64,000 nucleotides of DNA from Limnothrix sp. BL-A-16 (GTDB lineage: Bacteria; Cyanobacteriota; Cyanobacteriia; CACIAM-69d), in NCBI GenBank assembly GCA_041937175.2, contig CP166615.1:3168001-3232000 (forward strand), in the 5' to 3' direction. Both the position numbers and the translations under genes were made by a program. The notes under the pieces are model-generated. The model did not search any database, was not told the DNA's origin, and saw only the letters and a program-made list of their open reading frames with translations. Of the stretch, positions 6,585 to 33,961 are shown piece after piece (position 1 is the stretch's first letter; every line of letters begins with the position of its first letter).

Positions 6585-6674
6585 TCATTTCCTTAAATCA
6601 GCGGTATGACAAAGGCTACTAGCTCGATAGATAGCATCAAAAATATCGAAGAAATGGGCATCATCACGATTCAT
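6585..6674 (-). pseudogene. Internally deleted HEPN/HepT (DUF86) toxin remnant
   Basis: Overlaps the MNT stop; reads MNRDDAHFFDIFDAI (DUF86-like start); a shifted frame reads ELVAFVIPLI* (DUF86-like end); no RX4H core. Confidence 0.55.
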
Positions 6675-6981
6675 AAATAATTACTGCGGTACTTAAAATT
6701 TCCTGGCGACGAATCCAGTTGCTACCTTCTTGAATCGCCTCTTTGATGACCAGATCAACAGGGCGATCGAGCAGATCTTCAAGTTGATGCTTGATTCTAA
6801 CGAGGGTCAATAATCCTTGAGGAGCATCGGGTGCGAAGGAAATCAACAGATCAATATCGCTATTTTCTCGAAAGTCTTCTCGCAAAACAGAACCAAAGAG
6901 GGCTAGTTCAGCAATTTTCCATTGCCGACAGACTTCGATCAGCTTCTCCTCAGGAATTGCAAGGCGATTTGTTGGAAACAT
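6664..6981 (-). CDS. MNT minimal nucleotidyltransferase (MntA-type antitoxin)
   Basis: LFGSVLREDFRENSDIDLL (GSX10DXD), 105 aa. Confidence 0.9.
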   Translation of the reverse strand: MFPTNRLAIPEEKLIEVCRQWKIAELALFGSVLREDFRENSDIDLLISFAPDAPQGLLTLVRIKHQLEDLLDRPVDLVIKEAIQEGSNWIRRQEILSTAVIIYES

Positions 6982-6982
6982 C

Positions 6983-7549
6983 CTAACTAAAAATATCGGC
7001 GACTTTCAAGGTGAAATCAGCAAATAGGGGCGAGGTTAATTCGTCTTCGGCGAAGAGGGTGAAAACGAGTTCTAAACGGGCTTGCGATCGCCGATAGATC
7101 TCAACGGTTTGTTGTTGCCAATCCACGATCCAATATTCCCGCACCCCGACTCGGGAGTAGAGCTTGAGTTTCACTTGGCGATCGCGCGCAATGTCTTGGG
7201 GTGCTTGGGAAATCACCTCAACAACTAACTCAGGAGCCGCCGTGAAATGCCCCGCTTCATCAACGCAGCTTGCGGCTTTTTCATCGCTGATCCAAATCAA
7301 ATCGGGGATGACGTTTGCTTCTCCCGCAAAAATTAACCCCGGTGTTTGTAGGGCTTCTCCAGTGCGATTGTCTGAGTCTTGGGTGGGGAGCGATCGGCAG
7401 AGGCACGTTAATACTCGCTGGTGTTTCCAGTGGGGGGCGCGGGTCACGTATAGGTCTCCGTCGATGATTTCGTAGCGATCGCCGGTGTCGGGGAAGAGTG
7501 CTAAATCGGCGGTTGTCCACGGATTTTTCGGGTCAGCATTGGCAACCAT
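6983..7549 (-). CDS. Uma2 family (DUF820) PD-(D/E)XK endonuclease
   Basis: RYEIIDG, PDL, APELVVEVIS, KLKLYSRVGVREYWIVD. Confidence 0.92.
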   Translation of the reverse strand: MVANADPKNPWTTADLALFPDTGDRYEIIDGDLYVTRAPHWKHQRVLTCLCRSLPTQDSDNRTGEALQTPGLIFAGEANVIPDLIWISDEKAASCVDEAGHFTAAPELVVEVISQAPQDIARDRQVKLKLYSRVGVREYWIVDWQQQTVEIYRRSQARLELVFTLFAEDELTSPLFADFTLKVADIFS

Positions 7550-7640
7550 GGGGGTTCACGCTGGGTAGGTAGCAGCGGTGCTGGGGCGTTATGTTGATTG
7601 TACTGACTGGGGCAGGGCGATCGTAGCGGGCATCGGTTTT

Positions 7641-7976
7641 CTAAGCTGCGCCGTAGTTGGTGTATTGGCGTTTGTAGGGTGGTTGGAGACCGAGAATAAT
7701 GTCTTCTCGGGGGACACCCATCGCGATTAATTCTTCGGCGGGATTTTGGTCGGTTAGGTTTTGTTGGAGCCAGATTTTGCCGTCTTTGATGTCGAAATGA
7801 ATGATGCAGTGATAGACGCGGTTGAACTCTTGCCAACCGACGTTCATCCATTGGTAATGGTCGCGATCGCTATCAAAGATCAATTGCACTTCGACGTTTT
7901 CTGCTACGGGATCATCTTGGGCATATTGGCTCAGTAGGGTTTGAATATATTGTCGGTATTGGGCTATTTTTTCCAT
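7641..7976 (-). CDS. xisI: XisI protein
   Basis: FDSDRDHYQWMNVGW..HFDIKDGKIWLQQNLT..GVPREDIILG. Confidence 0.92.
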   Translation of the reverse strand: MEKIAQYRQYIQTLLSQYAQDDPVAENVEVQLIFDSDRDHYQWMNVGWQEFNRVYHCIIHFDIKDGKIWLQQNLTDQNPAEELIAMGVPREDIILGLQPPYKRQYTNYGAA

Positions 7977-8380
7977 TGGATGATCCTCTCCTGAGCTGGA
8001 TCGTAAACAACAATTGAGACTTGATACCGCTCTACGGCTGCCTGAGTGAATTCGTATTGAAAAAATGTTTGGTAAGAATCAACTGGAACGGCTAGATAGA
8101 GGGTTCGTTCTGGTTCGATCGATTCTAGGGCAAGGCGATAGCTGAGGAATTGGCCGAGAGCAGCATAGAAGTCTGTGACGGCGGAAGGGTTCAGAAAGCT
8201 TTTGATTTCGACGGCGATTTTTTCACCGGATCGTTCTGCGGCGAGTAGTCGTTCTGCGGCGAGATCAACGCGAAAGTTAACATTGCCAAATTTGAATCTG
8301 AGGGGATCATCAGTAATCACCCATTGTTCTTTTTCTAGGGCGTGTTTAACGGCTTCGTGGAACAGATCTTTGGCAGCCAT
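7964..8380 (-). CDS. xisH: XisH family protein
   Basis: MAAKDLFHEAVKHALEKEQWVITDDP..IAVEIKSF..ALGQFLSYR; overlaps xisI. Confidence 0.92.
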   Translation of the reverse strand: MAAKDLFHEAVKHALEKEQWVITDDPLRFKFGNVNFRVDLAAERLLAAERSGEKIAVEIKSFLNPSAVTDFYAALGQFLSYRLALESIEPERTLYLAVPVDSYQTFFQYEFTQAAVERYQVSIVVYDPAQERIIQWKK

Positions 8381-8540
8381 AGACGTTGGGCAGAGTTACC
8401 GAATTTTAGCATTCCGATCCGGCTGCGTCTGGGTTTGAGGCAGGGCGATCGCTTGCTCCGGTTGGCGGTTAGCTAAAATGGTGGGGAGCTAGTTTAGCGC
8501 TGTCGAGGTTGGGGATACATTCACGGGTTGGAGGTTGTCG

Positions 8541-8783
8541 ATGCAAATCACGATTACTTTGCCGCCGGATTTGGAGGGATATTTGCTGCGTCAGGCGGCT
8601 CAGACTGACCTTCCTTTGCCGTTGATTGTGCTACAGATTCTTCGGCAACTGATCCAGATGCCACCGGGTGTTACGACTCAGTGGCCGGAGGCTGTTTTGA
8701 ATTATGAGCCAGATCCCGATTTCCCTGAGTTTGAGTCCTATCGTAATGAGTTGATTGATCCCCAAGAAATAGAGTTATTTTGA
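8541..8783 (+). CDS. Putative antitoxin of the downstream VapC toxin
   Basis: Small acidic ORF with beta-strand/helix N-terminus; TGATG coupling to the PIN gene; ATG at 8541 (TTG at 8535 possible). Confidence 0.7.
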   Translation: MQITITLPPDLEGYLLRQAAQTDLPLPLIVLQILRQLIQMPPGVTTQWPEAVLNYEPDPDFPEFESYRNELIDPQEIELF

Positions 8784-9190
8784 TGCGCTATCTTTTGGAT
8801 ACTTGCGTCATCAGTGACTTTGTTAAGGGTGATGCACCAACAATAATTCGGTTTCGGAATACGCCCCCGACGGATATTGCAATTTCGGCAATTACGGTGA
8901 TGGAGTTACGTTATGGTTTGGCGATTAATCCACAACGCGCAGGGAAGGTTGAACCAATAATTTCTGACATTCTGGCATCTGTAACCATATTGCCATTTGG
9001 ACTGGCTGAAGCGGAAAGATCGGCTGAGGTTCGGGCTATTTTGAAATCACAGGGTCAACCGATCGGGGCTTATGATGTGTTGATTGCGGCGACGGCGCTT
9101 GCACATCAATTAATTATGGTGACTGCTAATCAGCGAGAGTTCGAGCGAGTTCCTGGGCTATCGATTGAAAATTGGCGACAGGCAGATTAG
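8783..9190 (+). CDS. vapC: VapC family PIN-domain toxin
   Basis: YLLDTCVIS, ITVMELRYG, IGAYDVLIAATA, VTANQREFERV. Confidence 0.92.
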   Translation: MRYLLDTCVISDFVKGDAPTIIRFRNTPPTDIAISAITVMELRYGLAINPQRAGKVEPIISDILASVTILPFGLAEAERSAEVRAILKSQGQPIGAYDVLIAATALAHQLIMVTANQREFERVPGLSIENWRQAD

Positions 9191-9316: not shown

Positions 9317-12300
9317 ATGGACGAGCAACGACTTCAGGCTTATTTGCAATTGATTCAGCAGTTGTTGGCTTGTCCGGCGGGGGAAGAGGAAAGCGTTTTG
9401 CAAGCCCAGGTGGAGTTGGTGGATGCGGGGCTGGTGGAGGTGATGGGACAGGTAGCTGACCTAATGGTGGAAAAAGGAGACAACAACGCCGGCCGATTGC
9501 GACAGTTTTCTGAGCAGGTGGCGCAGGCGTTGGGGCTGGAGTCAGCGACGGCGAGTGGTGCGGAGGATATGGATCAGTTTGTGGGGGAGGTGATGGAGCA
9601 GATTCTCCAAACCCAAGGCAATCCAGCGCAGGTTTATGGGTTTTGGCAGGTCGATTTAAATCGATTTAACGAAGCATTTTTGGCAACGCTGCCTATCACT
9701 TTTCGCCGCTTGATCGGGCAAAATGACCCCAAACTAATTGCGGCTATCTTTGCTAGGTTTGGAAACTTGATTCAACAATTTCCAATCGGTTCGCATTGGT
9801 TGAATCTGGAATGTGCAATTACGGTCTACGAACAGGCGCTGATGATCTACACCTGCGAAGCGCTTCTCGAAGATTGGGCCATGACCCAAAACAACCTGGC
9901 AACTGCTTACAGCAATCGAATCCGAGGGGAGAAGGCGGACAACCTAGAACTAGCGATCACCGCCTACAAACGGGCGCTGGAAGTCCTCACCCGCGATGCT
10001 TGTCCTGAAAATTGGGCAGGGACTCAAAACAATCTGGCCAATGCTTACAGCAATCGAATTCGAGGGGAGCGGGCGGACAACCTAGAACTAGCAATCACCG
10101 CCTACAAACGGGCGCTGGAAGTCTACACCCGCGATACTTTTCCTGAAAATTGGGCCATGACTCAAAACAACCTGGGAGAAGCTTACCGCTCTCGAATCCG
10201 AGGGGAGAAGGCGGACAACCTAGAACTAGCGATCACCGCCTACAAACGGGCACTGGAAGTCAGAACTCGCGATGCTTTTCCCAAAGATTGGGCAGGGACT
10301 CAAAACAATCTAGCCAATGGTTACGGTGCTCGAATCCGAGGGGAACGGGCGGACAACTTAGAACTAGCGATCACCGCTTACAAACGAGCGCTGGAAGTCT
10401 ACACCCGCGATACTTTTCCTGAAAATTGGGCCATGACCCAAAACAACTTAGCAACTGCCTACAGCAATCGAATCTGCGGGGAACGGGCGGATAACCTAGA
10501 ACTAGCGATCACCGCTTACAAACGAGCGCTGGAAGTCCGTACCCGCGAGGCGTTTCCTGAAGCTTGGGCAGCGACCCAAAACAACCTGGCAAATGCTTAC
10601 AGCGATCGCATCAGAGGAGAACGGGCGCACAACCTAGAACAAGCGATCACCGCTTACGAACGGGCGCTGGAAGTCTACACCCGCAATGCTTTTCCCGAAA
10701 ATTGGGCCATGACCCAAAACAACCTGGGAGAAGCTTATCGCGATCGCATCCGAGGGGAGCGGGCAGACAACCTGGAGCGAGCAATCATCGCTTGCGAACG
10801 GGCGCTGGAAGTCTATGCCCGCGATACTTTTCCACAAAATTGGGCCATGACCCAAAACAACTTAGCAACTGCCTACAGCAATCGAATCTGCGGGGAGCGG
10901 GCGGACAACCTAGAACTAGCGATCACTGCCTACAAACGGGCGCTGGAAATCTACACCCGCAATGCTTTTCCACAAGATTGGGCAGGGACTCAAAATAACC
11001 TGGCAAATGCTTACGTCGCTCGTATCCAAGGGGAACGGGCAGATAACCTGGAGCAGTCGATCGCCGCCTACAAACGGGCGCTGGAAGTCTACACCCATGA
11101 TGCTTTTCCTGAACAATGGGCAATGACCCAAAACAACCTGGCAAATACTTACAGCCAGAGAATTCGAGGGGAACGGGCGGACAACCCGGAACGGGCGATC
11201 ACTGCTTACGAACAGGCGCTGGAAGTCCGCACCCGCGAGGCGTTTCCCGAAGATTGGGCAGCGACCCAAAACAACCTAGCAATTGCTTACCGCGATCGCA
11301 TCCGAGGGGAACGGGCGGATAACCTCGAACAAGCGATCGCTGCCTACGAACGGGCGCTGGAAGTCTTCACCCGCGAGGCCTTTCCGAATGACTGTCGCCG
11401 TACTTCTCGATCGCTCGGCGATCTTCAAAGCGAGTTGCAAAACTGGGATGCTGCGACCCAAGCCTATGGGCAAGCCCTCGCCGCTGCGGAAGATCTCTAC
11501 CAAGCCTGCACCCTGCTCGACAGCCAAGCCGGTGAGCTAAAAGCAACCGCCAACCTGCCCCGCCGCGCCGCCTATGCCTACGCCAAAGCCAGTCAACTCG
11601 CCACAGCCCTCGAAACGATCGAACGGGGCCGCGCCCGGGGCCTCAGCGAACGACTCCAACGCGATCGCGCTGACCTCGCACAACTCCAACAACAGCGCCC
11701 TGACCTGTTCGATCGCTACCGCGACATCACCAACCAACTGCAAAACCTGGAAAGCCAACAACGCGACCAGCAAGTCCGCGATCGCCAAGCCATCACCCCC
11801 GAACAACACCGCAACGAAGCCCAAAGACTCCGCCAGGAATTGACCGAGGCGATCGCCCAAATTCGCCAAGTCCCCGGCTATGAAACCTTCCTGCAAGCAC
11901 CCAGCCTCACCGAAATTCAACAAAACCTCAGCACCGAAGCACCCACCGTCTACCTGATCCCCACCCCCAACGGCAGCCTCGCCCTAATCGCCACGCCCCA
12001 GGCGATCGCCCCCCTGTGGCTCGATGATTTCCCCGAAGCCACCCTCACCGACTTGGTGCAAACCTGGCTCCAGGCTGACAGAGAGTCCAAAGTGGCTAAC
12101 TATGAGTACAGTAAAGACCCGGAATCACTAGCCAAGATGCAGACCCGAAATGAAAAGCGGGAGCAGTGGCACAACGCGATCGACCAGGGAACCCGCCAAC
12201 TGTGGGACAACCTAATGGCTCCCCTAATCGATCGGCTCAAACAACACAACCACACCCAAGCGATCCTGATTCCCACCGGCTTGCTCGGATTGTTGCCCCT

Positions 12301-13099
12301 CCATGCCGCCTGGACAGAAGACCCCAGCCGCCCCACCGGCCGCCGCTACGCCCTCGATGAGCTGACCTTCACCTACGCCCCCAACGCCCAATCCCTCGTG
12401 GCCGCCCGGGCGGTGGCGGATGCCTTGCGGAGCAATATCGCCCAACAATTCCCCGACAGCCACCTCGATTCGATCCTGGCGATCGACAATCCCCGCCAAG
12501 ACCTGCCCAGCTCCGAACGGGAAGTCACGGCCGCCGTCAAAACCTTCCCCCACCCCACCGTCCTGCGCCACGAAAAAGCCACCACCGCAACCGTTGCCGA
12601 CAACCTGGGTCAACAGGCGATCGTCCATTTCTCCTGCCACGGAACCGCCAACTTCAACGAACCCCTCAACAGCGGCCTGCTAATGAGCGATGACCTGTTG
12701 ACCCTGCGCGAGCTATTTAACCTCAAGCTCACCGAAGGCAACAAACGCGGCATCCGGCTCGCCGTCCTCTCCGCCTGCGAAACGGGACTCCCCGGCCTGG
12801 ACTTAGCCGACGAGGCGATCGGCTTGCCCGTCGGACTGTTGCAAGCAGGCGTGGCCGGGGCGATCGCCTCGCTCTGGGCCGTGAGCGACCTCAGCACCAT
12901 GATTCTGCTCACCAAGTTCTACGACCTCTGGCGCAACGATCGCCTCACCCCACCCGCAGCCCTCCGCCAAGCCCAACAATGGCTCCGCAACGCGACCCTT
13001 TCCGAAATTCGCCAGCTCACCGGCATCAGTTTCCGAGGCGCTGAACACCCATTTGCCCACCCCTACTACTGGGCAGGCTTCAGCTACACCGGCATATAA
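9317..13099 (+). CDS. TPR-CHAT caspase-like (C14/C50 clan CD) protease
   Basis: Eleven 46-aa TPR-like repeats followed by a CHAT domain with intact dyad (HFSCHG, VLSACETG) and HPYYWAGF end. Confidence 0.93.
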   Translation: MDEQRLQAYLQLIQQLLACPAGEEESVLQAQVELVDAGLVEVMGQVADLMVEKGDNNAGRLRQFSEQVAQALGLESATASGAEDMDQFVGEVMEQILQTQGNPAQVYGFWQVDLNRFNEAFLATLPITFRRLIGQNDPKLIAAIFARFGNLIQQFPIGSHWLNLECAITVYEQALMIYTCEALLEDWAMTQNNLATAYSNRIRGEKADNLELAITAYKRALEVLTRDACPENWAGTQNNLANAYSNRIRGERADNLELAITAYKRALEVYTRDTFPENWAMTQNNLGEAYRSRIRGEKADNLELAITAYKRALEVRTRDAFPKDWAGTQNNLANGYGARIRGERADNLELAITAYKRALEVYTRDTFPENWAMTQNNLATAYSNRICGERADNLELAITAYKRALEVRTREAFPEAWAATQNNLANAYSDRIRGERAHNLEQAITAYERALEVYTRNAFPENWAMTQNNLGEAYRDRIRGERADNLERAIIACERALEVYARDTFPQNWAMTQNNLATAYSNRICGERADNLELAITAYKRALEIYTRNAFPQDWAGTQNNLANAYVARIQGERADNLEQSIAAYKRALEVYTHDAFPEQWAMTQNNLANTYSQRIRGERADNPERAITAYEQALEVRTREAFPEDWAATQNNLAIAYRDRIRGERADNLEQAIAAYERALEVFTREAFPNDCRRTSRSLGDLQSELQNWDAATQAYGQALAAAEDLYQACTLLDSQAGELKATANLPRRAAYAYAKASQLATALETIERGRARGLSERLQRDRADLAQLQQQRPDLFDRYRDITNQLQNLESQQRDQQVRDRQAITPEQHRNEAQRLRQELTEAIAQIRQVPGYETFLQAPSLTEIQQNLSTEAPTVYLIPTPNGSLALIATPQAIAPLWLDDFPEATLTDLVQTWLQADRESKVANYEYSKDPESLAKMQTRNEKREQWHNAIDQGTRQLWDNLMAPLIDRLKQHNHTQAILIPTGLLGLLPLHAAWTEDPSRPTGRRYALDELTFTYAPNAQSLVAARAVADALRSNIAQQFPDSHLDSILAIDNPRQDLPSSEREVTAAVKTFPHPTVLRHEKATTATVADNLGQQAIVHFSCHGTANFNEPLNSGLLMSDDLLTLRELFNLKLTEGNKRGIRLAVLSACETGLPGLDLADEAIGLPVGLLQAGVAGAIASLWAVSDLSTMILLTKFYDLWRNDRLTPPAALRQAQQWLRNATLSEIRQLTGISFRGAEHPFAHPYYWAGFSYTGI
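9875..11392 (+). repeat. 11 x 138-bp high-identity intragenic tandem repeats (46-aa TPR-like units)
   Basis: WA(M/G/A)TQNNL...RIRGERADNLELAITAYKRALEV units at 138-bp spacing (9875, 10013, ...). Confidence 0.9.
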
Positions 13100-13126
13100 T
13101 CAAATCAACCAACTTGCCATCTCAGA

Positions 13127-13396
13127 ATGCCAGTTCTGTCAATGTTTTATGGGCTAATTGTTTCCATGTACTTCATGGATAACAAAGAGCACAAACGCCC
13201 ACACATCCATATTTCCTATCAAGGCAAAGAAGCGGTTTTCAGTATTCCAGAGGGCGAAGTTCTATCGGGCAGCTTACCTCGAAAACAAACTCGACTAGCA
13301 CAAGCATGGATTGAAATTCATGCAGATGAACTGGTCGCAAACTGGGAGCTGGCGATCGCTGGTCAACCACTTTACAAAATTGAACCACTGAAATAA
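13127..13396 (+). CDS. DUF4160 protein
   Basis: MPVLSMFYGLIVSMYFMDNKEHKRPHIH..WIEIHADELVANW..IEPLK. Confidence 0.88.
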   Translation: MPVLSMFYGLIVSMYFMDNKEHKRPHIHISYQGKEAVFSIPEGEVLSGSLPRKQTRLAQAWIEIHADELVANWELAIAGQPLYKIEPLK

Positions 13397-13662
13397 TGAT
13401 GAATCCTAGGGTTGTCCATGTACTTGCGCGTGATCACTACAAACTTGAAATCCAGTTCACCAATCAAGAAGTGCGAATTTATGACTGCTCAACACTTTTA
13501 GATTTTGGCGTATTTCAAGAACTCAGAGACGAAACTTACTTCCGGAAAGTCAAGGTATTTAACGGCACAGTTACTTGGCCAAATGAGCAAGATATTTGCC
13601 CAGATACGCTCTATCTAGACTCTATCCCTTTACCGATTGCAGCCCAACCGTTGTCAGCATGA
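13396..13662 (+). CDS. DUF2442 protein (partner of DUF4160)
   Basis: YKLEIQFTN..GVFQELRD..TVTWPNEQDICPDTLY; TAATG coupling. Confidence 0.88.
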   Translation: MMNPRVVHVLARDHYKLEIQFTNQEVRIYDCSTLLDFGVFQELRDETYFRKVKVFNGTVTWPNEQDICPDTLYLDSIPLPIAAQPLSA

Positions 13663-14093
13663 ACACCACCTACGATCGCGATTTCTATGCTTGGACACAG
13701 GAGCAAATTGTGCTGCTGCAAAACCGAGATTTCGGGGCGATCGACCTCCCCAACTTAATCGAAGAACTCGCCGCCATGGGTCGCCAAGAACGTGAACAAC
13801 TTGTTAACCGTTTAGGTGTATTGATTGGTCATCTATTGAAATGGCGCTATCAGCCTGATATGCGAACCAACTCCTGGATCGGTACAATTCGCGAACAGCG
13901 GCGACGGATTCAGCGCTTACTCAAAAATAATCCAAGCTTGCAGCCATTTCTAGATGAAGCCTTCCGCGAAGCATATCTTGATGGGCGAGATCTGGCTATT
14001 CAAGATACTAACCTAGAGGATTCAGTCTTTCCAAAGGCTTCACCATTTACGCTGGAATTTGTCCTTTCGGACAATTTAGAGGAATCAATCTAA
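13659..14093 (+). CDS. DUF29 family protein
   Basis: YDRDFYAWTQEQ..NLIEELAAMG..HLLKW..NPSL; ATGA coupling at 13659. Confidence 0.9.
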   Translation: MNTTYDRDFYAWTQEQIVLLQNRDFGAIDLPNLIEELAAMGRQEREQLVNRLGVLIGHLLKWRYQPDMRTNSWIGTIREQRRRIQRLLKNNPSLQPFLDEAFREAYLDGRDLAIQDTNLEDSVFPKASPFTLEFVLSDNLEESI

Positions 14094-14137
14094 TTATCGA
14101 AATCACCTTTAAAGGCTCCCTCTTTCCAAACTACTCC

Positions 14138-14593
14138 ATGCTCTACACCGACGAAGATCTACTTGAAGCTGCTCGCACCATTCGCAGCGAATTGCCAGAT
14201 TTGTTGGATTCCGAAACCGCACAAAGCCTAGACGATCGCCTTGCTGAACTACTAAATCAAGTCCCCTTAGATTTGCGCGATCTACATTACGAAACCATCA
14301 GCGAGATCGCCACTCAAGTCGAAGAGTCTTTAAAAACACACGAGTCCACAAAGACTTGGCTAAAATCTTTTCTGATTGATTCATCCAATCACCAATGCCA
14401 AAGTTTTGAACCTCTTCCCGGTAATGCCAGTTACGTGGCAACCGATAAATATATTTGTCCCCACGGCGACTATCGCTGGTCTCGGCGCAGCATTGGCCAA
14501 CCGATTCCCCGCTGTCCAACCCATGATGTGCTCCTAATCCCGATCGCCGAATTTCAGCAGTTACGGTCTAGCTCATCGCAGGAGAACCCATGA
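14138..14593 (+). CDS. Hypothetical protein with helical N-terminus and C-terminal zinc-ribbon-like motif
   Basis: YICPHGDYRWSRRSIGQPIPRCPTH (CPxG...CPxH). Confidence 0.75.
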   Translation: MLYTDEDLLEAARTIRSELPDLLDSETAQSLDDRLAELLNQVPLDLRDLHYETISEIATQVEESLKTHESTKTWLKSFLIDSSNHQCQSFEPLPGNASYVATDKYICPHGDYRWSRRSIGQPIPRCPTHDVLLIPIAEFQQLRSSSSQENP

Positions 14594-15519
14594 CTGCCAA
14601 GGTGCTCGAAGGTGCAGGCGGCAAGGTTGCAGAACAGTGGATTTCGAGTCTGCTGACTTCTGCCATTGTCTTTTGGGCTGGGGGCTTGGTGGCGGTTATT
14701 CAGCGATTTGGCTGGCAACCCTTCACGGACTGGTTCACCAAACAGCCGGAGCCATTACAGTTGGCTTTGTTGGTCGCTGTATTGGGTGGAGCGATCGCCT
14801 CAGCCGCCGTTGTTGAGCGATTTCAACTAATGGCTTTACGCGGTCTAGAGGGCTATTGGCATCCTATCTTTAATGGCTTGAAAGCTCGATTAATTCGTCA
14901 GCAGATCAAGAATAAAGGAAAGCTTGAAGCACAGTTTCAAGACTTAGATAACCGCCCAAGACGCACCAGTCGCGATCGCCAATTACGCATCAAGCTCGAT
15001 CGCCAACTCAGTGATTTTCCCACCCAAGATATTGATATTATGCCCACGCCATTGGGAAATATCTTGCGGGCAGCGGAGTTACGATCGCTCGATAAATATG
15101 GGCTGGATGCGGTGATTTGTTGGCCGCGATTGTGGTTGTTATTACCCGAGTCTGCCAAAGCAGATTTACAGGCAGCGCGGGCCGAGCTGAACGCGATGGC
15201 TCGGCTGTGGATCTGGAGTTGGCTATTTTTGGTTTGGGTATTCTGGGCTTGGTGGGCAGCCCCGATCGCCATTATTTCGGCGTGCTTTGCCTATCACTGG
15301 GCGATCGCGGCGGCCAAAACCTATGGCGACTTGATCGAAGCCAGTTTTGATCTTTATCGTGGCTTGCTCTACGAGGCTTTGCGATTACCCTTTCCGAAGC
15401 AAGCAGACCAAGAACCAGCCGCCGGACGGATGTTAACTCAATATCTTTGGCGCGGTACTTTGCCAGAGTCCTACAAATTCATTGCAACTTCAGAAGTTTC
15501 TCCAGTCACTGATCAGTAG
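14590..15519 (+). CDS. Hypothetical membrane protein (about 3-4 TM) coupled to the zinc-ribbon ORF
   Basis: Two N-terminal TMs, soluble core MPTPLGNILRAAE..YGLDAVICWPRLW, Trp-rich C-terminal TM hairpin; ATGA overlap. Confidence 0.8.
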   Translation: MTAKVLEGAGGKVAEQWISSLLTSAIVFWAGGLVAVIQRFGWQPFTDWFTKQPEPLQLALLVAVLGGAIASAAVVERFQLMALRGLEGYWHPIFNGLKARLIRQQIKNKGKLEAQFQDLDNRPRRTSRDRQLRIKLDRQLSDFPTQDIDIMPTPLGNILRAAELRSLDKYGLDAVICWPRLWLLLPESAKADLQAARAELNAMARLWIWSWLFLVWVFWAWWAAPIAIISACFAYHWAIAAAKTYGDLIEASFDLYRGLLYEALRLPFPKQADQEPAAGRMLTQYLWRGTLPESYKFIATSEVSPVTDQ

Positions 15520-18519: not shown

Positions 18520-19017
18520 ATGTTTGACCAAAACGAGTTAGCCAATCTTGAGAAAAATATCAAGCGCCTTAAGCAGCAGTTAGCGGGCAAACGCGACACC
18601 CTGGTCACGATCGCTTCAGACGAAAAAGTACGGATTCGGCAGCAAATTGAAGATCTACGCTCCGAGATCAACGGCTTGGAGCGGGAATATTGGGAACTGC
18701 TGCATCAGCGATCGATCAGCTTTGAGCCGTCGGAGGATGAAGCTGAACCGATCGTGGCGGAATGGGTTGAGAAAGCCAATCAGTTAGAGACGAATCCGCC
18801 CGCCAACGTGCCTGCTGAGATTTTGCAGCAGGTGCAGGCGGTGGCCAAACGGTTGGATCAGCCGGGTCAATCGGCTGCGATCAAGGTGAAGGGGATGATT
18901 TCGGCGTTGCCACCATTTTTCTCGGTGGGCATTGAGACCGAATTGGATGTGGCGGGATTTGTAAAAGGCAATTTCCCCACTTTTTGGAACTGGGCGGCGG
19001 CACTCGCAAAAAAGTAG
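18520..19017 (+). CDS. Helical hypothetical protein; probable N-terminal (effector) module of a frameshift-fused NLR-like protein
   Basis: GAGGAG SD at 18505-18510, ATG at 18520; coiled-coil N-half; ends ...ALAKK* on A_AAA_AAG_TAG. Confidence 0.8.
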   Translation: MFDQNELANLEKNIKRLKQQLAGKRDTLVTIASDEKVRIRQQIEDLRSEINGLEREYWELLHQRSISFEPSEDEAEPIVAEWVEKANQLETNPPANVPAEILQQVQAVAKRLDQPGQSAAIKVKGMISALPPFFSVGIETELDVAGFVKGNFPTFWNWAAALAKK

Positions 19018-19048
19018 ATGGCCCGGTTCCAACGCCGGGCCAAGAACC
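19008..19048 (+). promoter_or_regulatory. Putative -1 programmed ribosomal frameshift cassette
   Basis: A_AAA_AAG (19008-19014) in the upstream ORF frame, stop TAG, then stem (T)GGCCCGG-8nt-CCGGGCC(A) at 19019-19042; GGTTC/GAACC could form a second stem. Confidence 0.75.
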
Positions 19049-21119
19049 GCCGACAAATTTGCAGGATCGGGGGGTCGATCGCGATCGCTTCTTTGGACGC
19101 GATGACGTATTGCAGGATTTGCACGATCGGTTGGGGCGATCGGATCGGGTGGCGGTGACGAGTGTGGCGGGCATGGGCGGCGTGGGCAAAAGTGAGCTGG
19201 CGGTGCAGTATGCGCGGTGGCGGCTGCGGGAGGGGGACTATCGCGGCGGGGTGGTGTGGCTGGCGGGGGAACGGGCGGGGATTGAGCTATTGGGGTTTGC
19301 GAAGGCGCAGTTTTTCCCGGATGTGGATTTGGCGCAGTTAGGCGATTTACGCGAACAGTTGACGTTTATTTGGTCGCGTTGGCCGGTGCCTGAGGTTCCG
19401 CCGGAGTCGGTGCTGTTGGTGTTTGATGATGTGACGGATTACCGATCGCAGGTGGCGGATCTGTTGCCGAGTGACAAGCGGTTTCGGGCGATCGTCACGA
19501 CGCGGGAGCAGATCCAGGGGATCGATCGGTTGGATTTGGCGGTGCTGGCTCCGGCGGCTGCGTTGGACTTGTTGCGATCAATCGTTGGGGAAGCGCGGAT
19601 CGCGGCGGAACCGGAGACGGCGAGCGAGATCTGTGAATGGCTGGGCTTTTTGCCGTTGGGTTTGGAGTTGGTGGGCTATTATCTCCAGCGCAAGCCGAAT
19701 CTGTCGCTGGCAAAGCTGCTGGAACGGTTGAATGAGAAGCGTTTGGCGGCGAGGGCGTTAATCGATGTGCCGGTGACGCTGACGGCACAGCGGGGGGTCG
19801 CGGCGGCGTTTGAGTTGAGTTGGGAGGCGATCGGCGCGCAGGAGTGGGGCGAGTCGGCGCAGGCGTTGGCGATGCGGCTGAGTCTGTTTGCGGCGGCTCC
19901 GATTCCGTGGGGCTTGATGCAGGACTGTTGGGCGGCGGCGGATGAGGAGGAGTTGGAGGATTGGCGCGATGGGTTAGTGGCGTTGCATCTGATTGAGGAT
20001 GTCACCGGGGAGCGCTATCGGTTGCATCCGCTGATTCGGGAGTTTTTTGCAGCGAAGTTGGCGGCGCGGGCGGAGGCGACAGCCTGGCGGACGGCGTTTG
20101 CGGTGACGTTGACGAAGATTGCGAGAACAATTCCGCAGACTGTGACGCTGGAACAGCAAGCCCAGGTGCGCGAGGCAATGCCCCATCTGGAAGCCGCGAC
20201 GGATTATTGCGACCTACTGAGCGATGATGATTGCGGCTGGCCGTTCACTGGTTTAGCCCGGTTTTACGAAGCCCAAGGCCTGTTCGAGGATGCCGAGCGT
20301 TGCTCTCAGCATTGCCTCGATATGCGCGAAACCCGCTTCGGAGCCGACCACCCTGATACCGCCACCAGCCTCAACAATTTGGCGGCATTGTATGAATCGC
20401 AAGGGAAATACGATCGCGCCGAACCGCTCTACCAACGCGCCTTAGACATCAGAGAACAGCAACTGGGAGCCGACCCCCCCGCTACCGCCACCAGCCTCAA
20501 CAATTTGGCGGGATTGTACCGATCACAAGGGAAATACGATCACGCCGAACCGCTCTTGCAACGCGCCTTAGCGATCAGGGAACGGCAACTGGGAGCCGAC
20601 CACCCCCATACCGCCAGCAGCCTCAACAATTTGGCGCTTTTGTATAAATCGCAAGGGAAATACGATCGCGCCGAACCGCTCTACCAACGCGCCTTAGCGA
20701 TCTATGAACGGCAACTGGGAGCCGACCACCCCAATACCGCCAGCAGCCTCAACAATTTGGCGCTTTTGTATAAATCGCAAGGGAAATACGATCGCGCCGA
20801 ACCGCTCTACCAAAGCGCCTTAGACATCAGAGAACGGCAACTGGGAGCCGACCACCCCGATACCGCCGCCAGCCTCAACAATTTGGCGGTGCTGTATTTC
20901 TATCAAAATCGCTGGGGCGAGGCGGAGCGGTTGCTGGTGCGGGCGCTGCTGATTTGGGCGCAGGTGTTGGGCGAAGCGCATCCCGACACGCAAAGCTCGA
21001 TTCAAAGCTTGTTCAGCCTAATCGGTGCAGCCCTGAACCAGGGACGCGCCGCCGAACTCTCCGACCACCCCGTCACCCAATCCATCCTGCAACAACTCAC
21101 CACCCCACCCAACCCGTAG
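19014..21119 (+). CDS. NB-ARC (STAND NTPase) + TPR protein, NLR-like; -1 frame continuation of 18520-19017
   Basis: FFGRD, Walker A GMGGVGKSE, Walker B LLVFDDV, IVTTR, GFLPLGL, RLHPLIR, then 42-aa TPR repeats; no in-frame ATG before the P-loop. Confidence 0.9.
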   Translation, partial: VDGPVPTPGQEPPTNLQDRGVDRDRFFGRDDVLQDLHDRLGRSDRVAVTSVAGMGGVGKSELAVQYARWRLREGDYRGGVVWLAGERAGIELLGFAKAQFFPDVDLAQLGDLREQLTFIWSRWPVPEVPPESVLLVFDDVTDYRSQVADLLPSDKRFRAIVTTREQIQGIDRLDLAVLAPAAALDLLRSIVGEARIAAEPETASEICEWLGFLPLGLELVGYYLQRKPNLSLAKLLERLNEKRLAARALIDVPVTLTAQRGVAAAFELSWEAIGAQEWGESAQALAMRLSLFAAAPIPWGLMQDCWAAADEEELEDWRDGLVALHLIEDVTGERYRLHPLIREFFAAKLAARAEATAWRTAFAVTLTKIARTIPQTVTLEQQAQVREAMPHLEAATDYCDLLSDDDCGWPFTGLARFYEAQGLFEDAERCSQHCLDMRETRFGADHPDTATSLNNLAALYESQGKYDRAEPLYQRALDIREQQLGADPPATATSLNNLAGLYRSQGKYDHAEPLLQRALAIRERQLGADHPHTASSLNNLALLYKSQGKYDRAEPLYQRALAIYERQLGADHPNTASSLNNLALLYKSQGKYDRAEPLYQSALDIRERQLGADHPDTAASLNNLAVLYFYQNRWGEAERLLVRALLIWAQVLGEAHPDTQSSIQSLFSLIGAALNQGRAAELSDHPVTQSILQQLTTPPNP
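20340..20969 (+). repeat. 5 x 126-bp intragenic TPR repeats (four near-identical)
   Basis: GADHPxTAxSLNNLAxLYxSQGKYDRAEPLYQRALxIxERQL units at 126-bp spacing. Confidence 0.9.
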
Positions 21120-32611: not shown

Positions 32612-33961
32612 ATGGGCGATCGCATGATTCGACAGTTGACGGCGAGCCTGGCAGCCGTAATGGTGGGCAGCACGATCGCGCCGCCGGGTTGGGCCAGCCA
32701 GCCCAGCGAACCCGTCACCCCCGCCAACGTGGTCAACAAAATCGAAGCGTTGTGGGAGGGGGAATACGAACGCCAATTCAACCGCGACTTACCCGCCCGA
32801 CGCATTTCGGCGGCGATTGTCTCAGAGCAGTTGCGGGAAATGGAACGGCGCACCGGCCAGCGATCGGCGCTGCTGTACATGATGCCCCGGGACAACGATG
32901 TGGAATTGGTGTTGGTCACCGGCCGCAGCGAACCCAGAATTGAAATCATTCCCGGCGCGTCCCAAGCAACCGTCAATGAAGCGGTGAAGCTGCTGACCGT
33001 TGCGATCACCAACCCGGTGCAGCGAAACGGGGTGAACTATTTACCCTATGCAAGACGCTTGCACAATTGGCTGATTGCCCCGATCGAGTCACAGCTCCAG
33101 GCGGAAGGGATTGAGCTGCTGATTTTTTGCCCTGGGGAGGGGCTGCGATCGGCTCCCTTGGCAGCCCTGCACGATGGCCAGCGCTTTTTGATTGAAAAAT
33201 ACGCGATCGCTCGAATTCCCGGCTTCAGTCTCTTTGATCCACAAGCGGGCAACCTCCAGCGATCGCGGGTGCTGGCCATGGGCGCGTCGCAATTTGAAGA
33301 CACCACCAACCTCAGCCCCTTGCCCGGCGTGCCGATCGAGCTGGAAGCAATTGTGGGCAACGGAGATCGGCCCGGTCTGTGGCCCGGTCGTTATTTCTTG
33401 AACAACCAGTTCACCTTGGGCGCGTTGCAACGGGAACGCCAACGCAGCGACTACGGCATTGTGCATTTGGCGACCCATGCGGAATTCAAAGCCGGTCGCC
33501 CCGAAGCGTCGTTTATTCAGTTTTGGCAAGAGCGATTGAGCTTGGCACAAATCCAGGCGATCGACTGGATCAGCAAGCCGGTGGAATTGTTGGTGCTCAG
33601 TGCTTGTCGAACCGCCGTGGGCGATCGGGAGGCGGAGTTGGGCTTTGCGGGCATGGCGATCGCGTCCGGGGTCAAAGCCTCGATCGCCAGTCTTTGGTAC
33701 GTGAGCGATCGGGGAACCCTGGCCCTGATGAACGAGTTTTATCGCCAATTGCGCCAGGCCCCCACCAAGTCAGAAGCCCTGCGCCAAGCCCAATTGGCCC
33801 TCCTGCGCGGCCAGGTGCGCATTGAGGGCAATGAGTTACGCGGCTCCGGGGCCCGGGGTGGCACGGTGTTTCTGCCGCCGGATATTGCGGCCACCGGCCA
33901 GGAACTGCTATCGCACCCCTACTATTGGGCCGCGTTCACCGTCATCGGCAATCCTTGGTAG
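32612..33961 (+). CDS. Stand-alone CHAT domain protein with putative signal peptide
   Basis: VHLATHAEF, LLVLSACRTA, ASLWYVSD, HPYYWAAF; alternative ATG at 32624. Confidence 0.88.
   Translation: MGDRMIRQLTASLAAVMVGSTIAPPGWASQPSEPVTPANVVNKIEALWEGEYERQFNRDLPARRISAAIVSEQLREMERRTGQRSALLYMMPRDNDVELVLVTGRSEPRIEIIPGASQATVNEAVKLLTVAITNPVQRNGVNYLPYARRLHNWLIAPIESQLQAEGIELLIFCPGEGLRSAPLAALHDGQRFLIEKYAIARIPGFSLFDPQAGNLQRSRVLAMGASQFEDTTNLSPLPGVPIELEAIVGNGDRPGLWPGRYFLNNQFTLGALQRERQRSDYGIVHLATHAEFKAGRPEASFIQFWQERLSLAQIQAIDWISKPVELLVLSACRTAVGDREAELGFAGMAIASGVKASIASLWYVSDRGTLALMNEFYRQLRQAPTKSEALRQAQLALLRGQVRIEGNELRGSGARGGTVFLPPDIAATGQELLSHPYYWAAFTVIGNPW

Follow-up and report, generated by a model that had tools for sequence, protein, structure and literature searches.

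A conserved three-gene module of a TPR-CHAT protease, a small Cys/His-tail protein and a four-transmembrane protein in Limnothrix sp. BL-A-16: a candidate protease-gated effector system

Introduction

Caspase-like proteases that are fused to interchangeable sensors and stand beside a constant small substrate gene make up the EACC1-caspase, Pepco, alpha/beta-hydrolase-caspase, MBL and bacterial gasdermin modules, which occur in cyanobacteria and actinomycetes (Evans et al. 2025, PMC12642450; for all papers cited here our statements extend to the portions of text available to us). Here we describe a module of similar build in Limnothrix sp. BL-A-16 (GenBank assembly GCA_041937175.2, contig CP166615.1, positions 3,168,001 to 3,232,000). 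This whole stretch of 64,000 nucleotides is called the window, and coordinates are window positions on its + strand unless another locus is named. The three genes of the module encode a TPR-CHAT protease, a small protein with a Cys/His tail and a protein with four predicted transmembrane (TM) segments, and they represent a real, conserved variant of protease-gated effector modules that is apparently undescribed. In the modules of Evans et al. the protein that is cut acts as pore or enzyme itself, whereas here a soluble Cys/His-tail protein, the predicted substrate, is accompanied by a separate 4-TM protein; the small/4-TM pair is not among the modules named as surveyed in the available portions of their paper (PMC12642450). 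EACC1 is a single-TM protein, in contrast to the small protein, which is modelled as a soluble helical bundle with a tail. No EACC1 or Trypco family was among the Pfam matches of 96 small-protein and 79 TM-protein members, the presence of these models in the Pfam copy not having been checked separately.

The locus also resembles the type III-E Craspase system (Csx29/Csx30) and the SAVED-CHAT/PCaspase/PCi cascade, in which a CHAT protease adjoins its substrate. With the Csx29 model NF041237, however, the protease scored 44.3 bits against a cut-off of 300, which places it outside type III-E, and no Cas or sigma-factor gene was seen adjoining the locus. A caspase-like TPR protease beside a small helical protein is reportedly also the layout of CATRA/CATASP, as set out by Burroughs and Aravind in 2020, and the locus is similar to that arrangement. 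CATASP (PF20271) gave no match at the locus at E<=1, and no family named CATASP or CATRA was found among the 96 small-protein or 79 TM-protein members. As to gasdermins, the models of the small and the TM protein are both mostly helical, no gasdermin was listed in the fold searches, and PADLOC gave no match. A search of full-text literature found no description of the module, and an earlier computational mention may exist. The full texts searched contained none of six family accessions, and six (four common to the full-text set) were likewise missing from the supplementary files of two papers, Kaur 2020 (2 files) and Kaur 2021 (12 of 13 files). The module is not described in the available portions of Kaur 2020, Kaur 2021, a 2026 ParA preprint, the SAVED-CHAT preprint and PMC13581612.

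Results

The true unit comprises three of six co-directional genes: the TPR-CHAT caspase-like cysteine protease (9317..13099, 1260 aa), which is the predicted sensor-protease, the small protein (14138..14593, 151 aa), the predicted substrate or pro-ligand, and the 309-aa TM protein (14590..15519), the predicted receptor/effector. An earlier note, made from the letters of this DNA alone, had reported all six genes with their short gaps or overlaps and a coupling of the last two. This layout was recovered in full, the start of the TM gene at 14590 overlapping the end of the small gene at 14593 through ATGA.

We collected homologous loci around the TM gene, taking from GTDB the best 80 of 162, from metagenomes the best 80 of 493 and from plasmids 4 of 5 hits. 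Where at least 500 bp upstream were present, a small gene stood directly upstream of the TM gene at 78/79 GTDB and 54/56 metagenome loci. A clan-CD protease on the same strand and within 4 kb was found at 71 of the 80 GTDB loci and at 39 of the 42 whose flanks reach 4 kb or more on each side, as compared with 30 of 1047 (2.9%) own-genome open reading frames (ORFs) of 250-400 aa, a size-matched background that is somewhat low because the local hidden Markov models used for it found 12 CHAT genes vs 16 with Pfam. The earlier note had predicted such an enrichment around homologues of the two downstream genes, and these counts rule out chance adjacency of the trio. Among metagenome loci, mostly on short contigs, 32/80 had a protease, as did 5 of 11 full-flank contigs. 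At all four actinobacterial plasmid loci an annotated CHAT gene adjoins the TM gene. One of the loci, on a Streptomyces plasmid (L173:7129-9110), carries a CHAT gene, an unannotated gene with a frameshift whose product combines a Cys/His tail with a different N-domain, and a TM homologue with a long extra C-terminal region.

The TM profile detected 6,287 clusters (50% identity) at E<=0.001 and 743 at E<=1e-30, and the module occurs in cyanobacteria, actinomycetes and other phyla. Its spread is patchy: the TM family was found in 10/301 cyanobacterial genomes (two of them marginal) and in 3/301 of the acidobacterial phylum. A viral-contig check with one pattern confirmed none. The genome of the window holds one TM-family gene and 16 CHAT genes by Pfam.

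The protease matched Pfam CHAT over residues 960-1257 (E 2e-54, 185 bits against a cut-off of 24; domain at 12194..13087), and its best sequence match among solved structures was a Csx29-type CHAT protein (E 5e-7). In alignment with solved Csx29-type CHAT proteins, His1108 (codon 12638-12640) and Cys1154 (12776-12778) fall on the HG and AC motifs. The intact dyad behind 11 repeats that had been read from the letters is present, the TPR-like array (residues 183-688, 9863..11380) consisting of exactly 11 repeats of 46 aa. These are 76-94% identical to one another in DNA (120 bases compared per repeat), with variation concentrated at positions 4, 7, 14, 17 and 18; a blastn search of the own genome found no template of the TPR gene like that of a diversity-generating retroelement. 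Among the CHAT domains adjoining module homologues, the catalytic His and Cys are kept in 69/69, E1069 likewise in 69/69 and D/E at position 1191 in 65/69. By the topology that we infer, E1069 and D/E1191 (Asp here) would form an acidic pocket of the Arg/Lys-binding type, analogous to MALT1, in which alpha1 Asp365 and L5 Glu500 bind the P1 Arg (PMC4357240). C14 caspase partners of the module, described below, carry D-x-C, and a bacterial caspase has been shown to cut a conserved R|G motif in the hydrolase zymogen of the module of Evans et al. (PMC12642450).

For the small protein, a helical domain, a linker and a metal-binding-like tail had been noted, and the AlphaFold2 model (predicted local distance difference test, pLDDT, 88.8) contains all three, as four helices (residues 1-85), a linker modelled with low confidence and a compact tail of beta structure. 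The designation as a zinc ribbon held in part. In the probable metal-binding tail, C107...C126-P-x-H129 (14456..14524), C107 (77/77), C126 (77/77) and H129 (76/77) are near-invariant in the family, but the fourth ligand position is Cys in 43/77 and Gly in 33/77; it is Gly in the Limnothrix copy, so a zinc ribbon is likely but not canonical.

The linker contains a candidate cut site. A Lys or Arg lies exactly 7 residues N-terminal of the conserved Gly95 in 65/94 sequences, with 0-21/94 at other offsets; it is directly followed by Gly or Ser in 56 of the 65, and Phe or Tyr stands two positions past P1 in 68/94. A 7-residue control window also contains K/R in 51/94, so that only the exact-offset signal discriminates. 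The strict motif [KR]|[GS][FY]xxL[PA]G, with the bar at the predicted cut, occurs in 53 small proteins or fusions and in 1 other ORF among 12,020 locus ORFs. In the window the predicted scissile motif spans residues 88-95 (14399..14422), with Gln at position 88. The conserved basic-P1 motif of the family fits a protease substrate. Most of the strongly conserved residues of the small protein fall C-terminal of the predicted cut, and the N-domain is a small helical bundle whose first helix is amphipathic and conserved.

The small protein of this locus was unmatched in Pfam, NCBIfam, PADLOC and the PDB. Among the 96 members no Pfam family was consistent, none matching more than 6/96 even at E 0.05, and Foldseek gave no match for the model. 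Structure comparison reached a best Z of 6.7; weak CARD matches (Z 5.6-6.3) were rejected, being of a kind expected for any helical bundle. The tail was hardly covered in this comparison.

Several small-gene variants were observed: a tandem duplication of the helical domain (L063:8407-9234), two small genes at a single locus (L113:753-2932), and a gene with the motif and without the Cys tail (L008:2002-2355). At three protease-less loci (L106, L122 and L125, the last with the small gene upstream of 6983) no basic residue stands at the motif of the small protein either. At the syntenic congeneric locus L001:9564-10930 the TM protein is ~72% identical and the small protein only ~23%, which suggests replacement or fast evolution of the small gene. 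The TPR-CHAT ORF of L001 is split within the repeats, as is that of L003, possibly through assembly.

The earlier description of the 309-aa protein as multi-TM was borne out by single-sequence and family-averaged hydropathy, which gave four hydrophobic segments near residues 18-38, 55-77, 200-219 and 223-243. Its model is all-helical (pLDDT 90.6). The large middle domain contains about 20 K/R and most of the invariant residues, and the two short loops carry little charge; on this charge pattern the middle domain is predicted to be cytoplasmic. The closest named relatives are from Limnothrix (93%), consistent with a filamentous cyanobacterial host. The protein was unmatched in Pfam, NCBIfam, PADLOC and the PDB; no Pfam family was consistently matched by 79 TM members, and PADLOC matched 0/96. 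With the TM model, Foldseek found nothing at E<=0.001 and VIA a best Z of 6.6 (root-mean-square deviation 3.0, 63 residues aligned, hairpins only). ESM Atlas searches yielded unnamed clusters only. Long fused TM forms were sought among candidates of 640-2000 aa, a weak test, and none were found. Two single ORFs (P0212, P0232) appear to be small-protein/TM fusions; their junctions are garbled and may be frameshift errors.

With ESMFold2, TM residues 1-300, small-protein residues 89-140 and Zn gave a complex score of 0.58, as compared with 0.00 for the best control. The runs agreed in at least 96% of contacts, and partner pLDDT was 85 or higher. Among solved pairs 116/157 reached the mark and among mismatched pairs 2/215, but at scores <=0.60 it was reached by only 18 solved pairs together with both mismatches, so the score gives weak support for binding of the tail to the TM protein. 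Because the near-obligate gene pairing made the prior high, we take it as likely that the tail of the small protein binds the TM protein.

The protease partner is interchangeable, being a TPR-CHAT protease, a caspase-STAND protein or a caspase fusion. At 47 GTDB loci a CHAT gene lies upstream, nearly all of them TPR-CHAT, and 24 loci have a Peptidase C14: 16 downstream, 3 upstream (mostly caspase-nSTAND1 or caspase-NACHT-WD40) and 5 fused to the small-protein tail. In a quick IQ-TREE analysis of 100 TM rows, with SH-aLRT support only, the C14-linked rows comprise a starred clade of 15 rows, a starred fusion pair apart from it and a single isolated row, which may be due to chance; C14 partners are found in two or more distinct, well-supported TM clades. 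The locus family thus combines constant partner genes with a protease that carries interchangeable sensors, as protease-gated effector modules do. At a distant acidobacterial locus (L174:3037-7390) a papain-family protease is followed by an LPG/Cys-tail protein without a basic P1 and by a distant TM homologue, a hint that the P1 residue may vary with the class of protease.

Seven caspase fusions were found, five in GTDB and two in metagenomes (L054, L057, L058, L066, L071, L092, L093). All seven lack the helical N-domain and end in K-[GS]-FEPLPG plus the tail, directly before the TM gene. Their linker contains a Gly/Asn/Val-rich amyloid-like motif that is common to the N-termini of neighbouring NOD-like receptor (NLR) proteins. 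A profile built from 11 of these NLR N-termini alone, several of which match Pfam EAD10, matched 7/7 fusion linkers (iE 6e-10 to 8e-4 among the 12,020 ORFs). A motif common to an NLR N-terminus and the adjacent effector, as in BASS systems, was found in the fusion clade only; searches of the genome of the window did not detect the amyloid-like motif, and it was not assigned to a numbered BASS family. A matching motif arrangement has been described for NLR amyloid signalling (10.1101/2020.01.06.895854), and Bab/Agp amyloid signalling gives anti-phage cell death (10.1101/2024.11.07.622273). The fusion clade resembles NLR-BASS-Bell and Bab/Agp in the Gly/Asn/Val-rich motif on NLR N-termini and on the effector-side protein, and differs from NLR-BASS-Bell in that the downstream protein has no Bell domain and consists of caspase, cut site and Cys tail, followed by the 4-TM gene. 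The motif common to fusions and NLRs suggests an immune context for the fusion clade. Around the fusion modules of L057, L058, L066 and L071 there are islands of several NACHT/AAA NLR-like genes with the EAD10/amyloid-like N-terminal motif.

Between the protease and the small gene the window carries DUF4160 (DhiT-like toxin, 13127..13396), DUF2442 (13396..13662) and DUF29 (13659..14093), identities proposed earlier and matched by Pfam profiles. DUF4160 and DUF2442 overlap via TAATG and DUF2442 and DUF29 via ATGA; the remaining gaps are 27 bp (protease to DUF4160) and 44 bp (DUF29 to small gene). None of the three lies between protease and TM gene in the 80 GTDB loci. We therefore rejected them as core members, and they are strain-specific inserts, in line with the later insertions supposed in the earlier note. 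Of 46 CHAT-type GTDB loci, 28 are insert-free and 18 have varied inserts (Uma2, PIN, MNT-HepT and others). A congeneric genome with the same synteny has a different 210-aa gene in the slot, which is empty in a confamilial genome. The adjacent DUF4160/DUF2442 genes have the dhiTA domain pair (PMC8198452), the DUF4160 protein reaching 91 bits with the DhiT equivalog, under the NCBIfam cut-off of 100. One contig joint in metagenome run X1, at which 13100-13436 are skipped and one side has only 30 letters, was not relied on.

An Rfam scan of the window gave no match, and promoter and terminator scans did no better than chance. Just upstream of the protease (6664-9190) lies a mobile or toxin-antitoxin (TA)-type cluster of nucleotidyltransferase, Uma2, XisI, XisH and a small gene with PIN, part of which differs in the congeneric genome. 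At 18520-21119, 3 kb past the end of the module, an NB-ARC/TPR NLR-like gene overlaps the gene of a 165-aa protein whose EAD9 match is weak and under cut-off. A second CHAT gene of the window (449 aa) lies at 32612-33961.

Discussion

We propose that the TPR array, or elsewhere a STAND-WD40 sensor or amyloid-coupled NLRs, would sense an invader and activate the protease. The protease would cut the small protein after Lys or Arg at [KR]|[GS][FY]xxL[PA]G, removing the helical N-domain and creating a new N-terminus, and the freed C-terminal peptide of ~45 residues with its metal-binding tail would dock on the conserved, predicted cytoplasmic domain of the 4-TM protein. The TM protein would thereby be switched on, leading to membrane depolarisation or damage, or to arrest, and to abortive infection. 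For this sequence of sensor-protease, small-protein cleavage, engagement of the 4-TM protein by the C-fragment and depolarisation, we see not quite an even chance.

In animals, protease-activated receptors follow a tethered-ligand logic. By analogy only, and with no homology claimed, cleavage at a basic residue would here expose a small-aromatic N-terminus that activates a membrane protein; unlike in the animal receptors, the ligand is a separate, predicted cytoplasmic protein. A bacterial protease-activated receptor in this sense, with an immune caspase cutting a soluble pro-ligand whose newly exposed N-terminus and tail gate a dedicated 4-TM effector, as a plug-in output for TPR-CHAT, STAND-caspase and amyloid-coupled NLR sensors, is a bolder version that we regard as doubtful.

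Several observations weigh against the proposed mechanism, besides the low linkage background and the K/R in the control window mentioned above. The case is built from sequences and models, and cleavage, binding, toxicity and phage defence are all predicted. No protease was detected at 3/42 full-flank GTDB loci and 6/11 full-flank metagenome loci, the six amounting to about three independent cases, and at L175 a distant TM homologue stands without small protein or protease. Because the loci are related, the counts are descriptive and non-independent, and the distant majority of TM clusters was hardly sampled (743/6,287 at E<=1e-30). Nothing about function can be read from the fold of the TM protein, and the polar residues that are invariant in it (N157, R160, E163, D254 and R257) may belong to an enzyme or a signal relay instead of a pore.

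The allele of this strain also counts against the mechanism. The predicted P1 (position 88) is Gln in 13 of the 36 closest sequences, including that of the window, and Lys in 23, and the acidic S1 residues of the protease are unchanged despite the Gln. P2 has changed from Arg to Cys in the Limnothrix copy, Cys87 occurring in only 2 of the 36. K76-S-F, 12 residues before position 88, is present in 12/13 Gln88 alleles and 0/23 Lys88 alleles, and K76 is a possible shifted cut site; the association goes back to a single evolutionary event, and the model places K76 within a helix. In lake metagenomes X1 and X2, Gln88 was the sole allele listed at position 88, with minor Gln76 contigs also present, and single contigs in X5 and X9 had Gln76 with Lys88. 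The presence of Gln88 in metagenome contigs indicates that the allele is natural. With Gln at P1 the copy may be uncuttable and silenced, or cut at K76; in short, it may be dead, re-sited or cut with relaxed specificity. That this copy is silenced or decaying is quite conceivable, though we lean against it, and would be compatible with the proposed mechanism at family level. The changes at P1 and P2, the insertion of three TA-type genes and broken module copies elsewhere (L080, G028) speak for decay. Against it, none of the three ORFs is broken and the catalytic residues are present, X1 and X2 list no allele but Gln88 at this position, and K76-S-F offers a possible alternative site, with the reservations given above.

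The intact small protein may instead act as an antitoxin or plug on the TM protein, or as a pseudo-substrate inhibitor of the protease, and its cleavage would free a constitutively toxic effector. Tight translational coupling and near-obligate small/TM pairing suit such de-repression, the predicted complex does not distinguish activation from inhibition, and where the protease is missing the pair would form a stable unit of TA type; a cleaved inhibitor, PCi, is known from the SAVED-CHAT/PCaspase cascade (10.1101/2023.06.23.546230). However, the conserved residues are mostly post-cut and the post-cut fragment is the predicted binder, so cleavage would not obviously release the small protein from the TM protein, and the conserved P1'-P2' residues (G/S, F/Y) suggest that the new N-terminus matters. 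We consider de-repression unlikely, and a proteolytic relay for stress or development in multicellular bacteria improbable to a similar degree. In such a relay, without a killing or anti-phage role, the TM protein would be a signal transducer or an enzyme. HetF is a CHAT-family protease. Its cleavage of PatU3 in cyanobacterial development provides a precedent (PMC9457339), to which the 16 CHAT genes of the genome and the 0/96 PADLOC matches of TM members may be added, but patchy spread, plasmid copies, swapping of NLR-type sensors and the amyloid-like motif common to NLRs are typical of immune modules.

A reading in which the N-terminal helical domain, once released, acts as a Bell/HeLo-like effector, with the TM protein as receptor or immunity protein for it, is very improbable in our view. 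The form of the N-domain as a small helical bundle and its conserved, amphipathic first helix speak for this reading, but the domain is missing from 7/7 caspase fusions and replaced by other N-terminal sequence in L173 and L174, which keep the Cys tail, and, as stated above, no Pfam family matches more than a few small-protein members.

The interpretation given in the earlier note was supported in part, as regards the protease linkage, the inserts and the small protein as a candidate substrate, which the basic-P1 motif of the family fits, and overlooked the exchangeable partner protease and the Gln at P1 of this copy. To our knowledge, substrates are known for only a minority of bacterial CHAT and caspase proteases. 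For a family of thousands of sequence clusters, the module described here offers a defined predicted cut site together with candidates for ligand and effector. If the proposed mechanism is true, protease-gated immunity, in whose known modules the cleaved protein serves as toxin, would gain a two-part output of peptide ligand and membrane effector, and NLR amyloid signalling would be connected with a caspase step.

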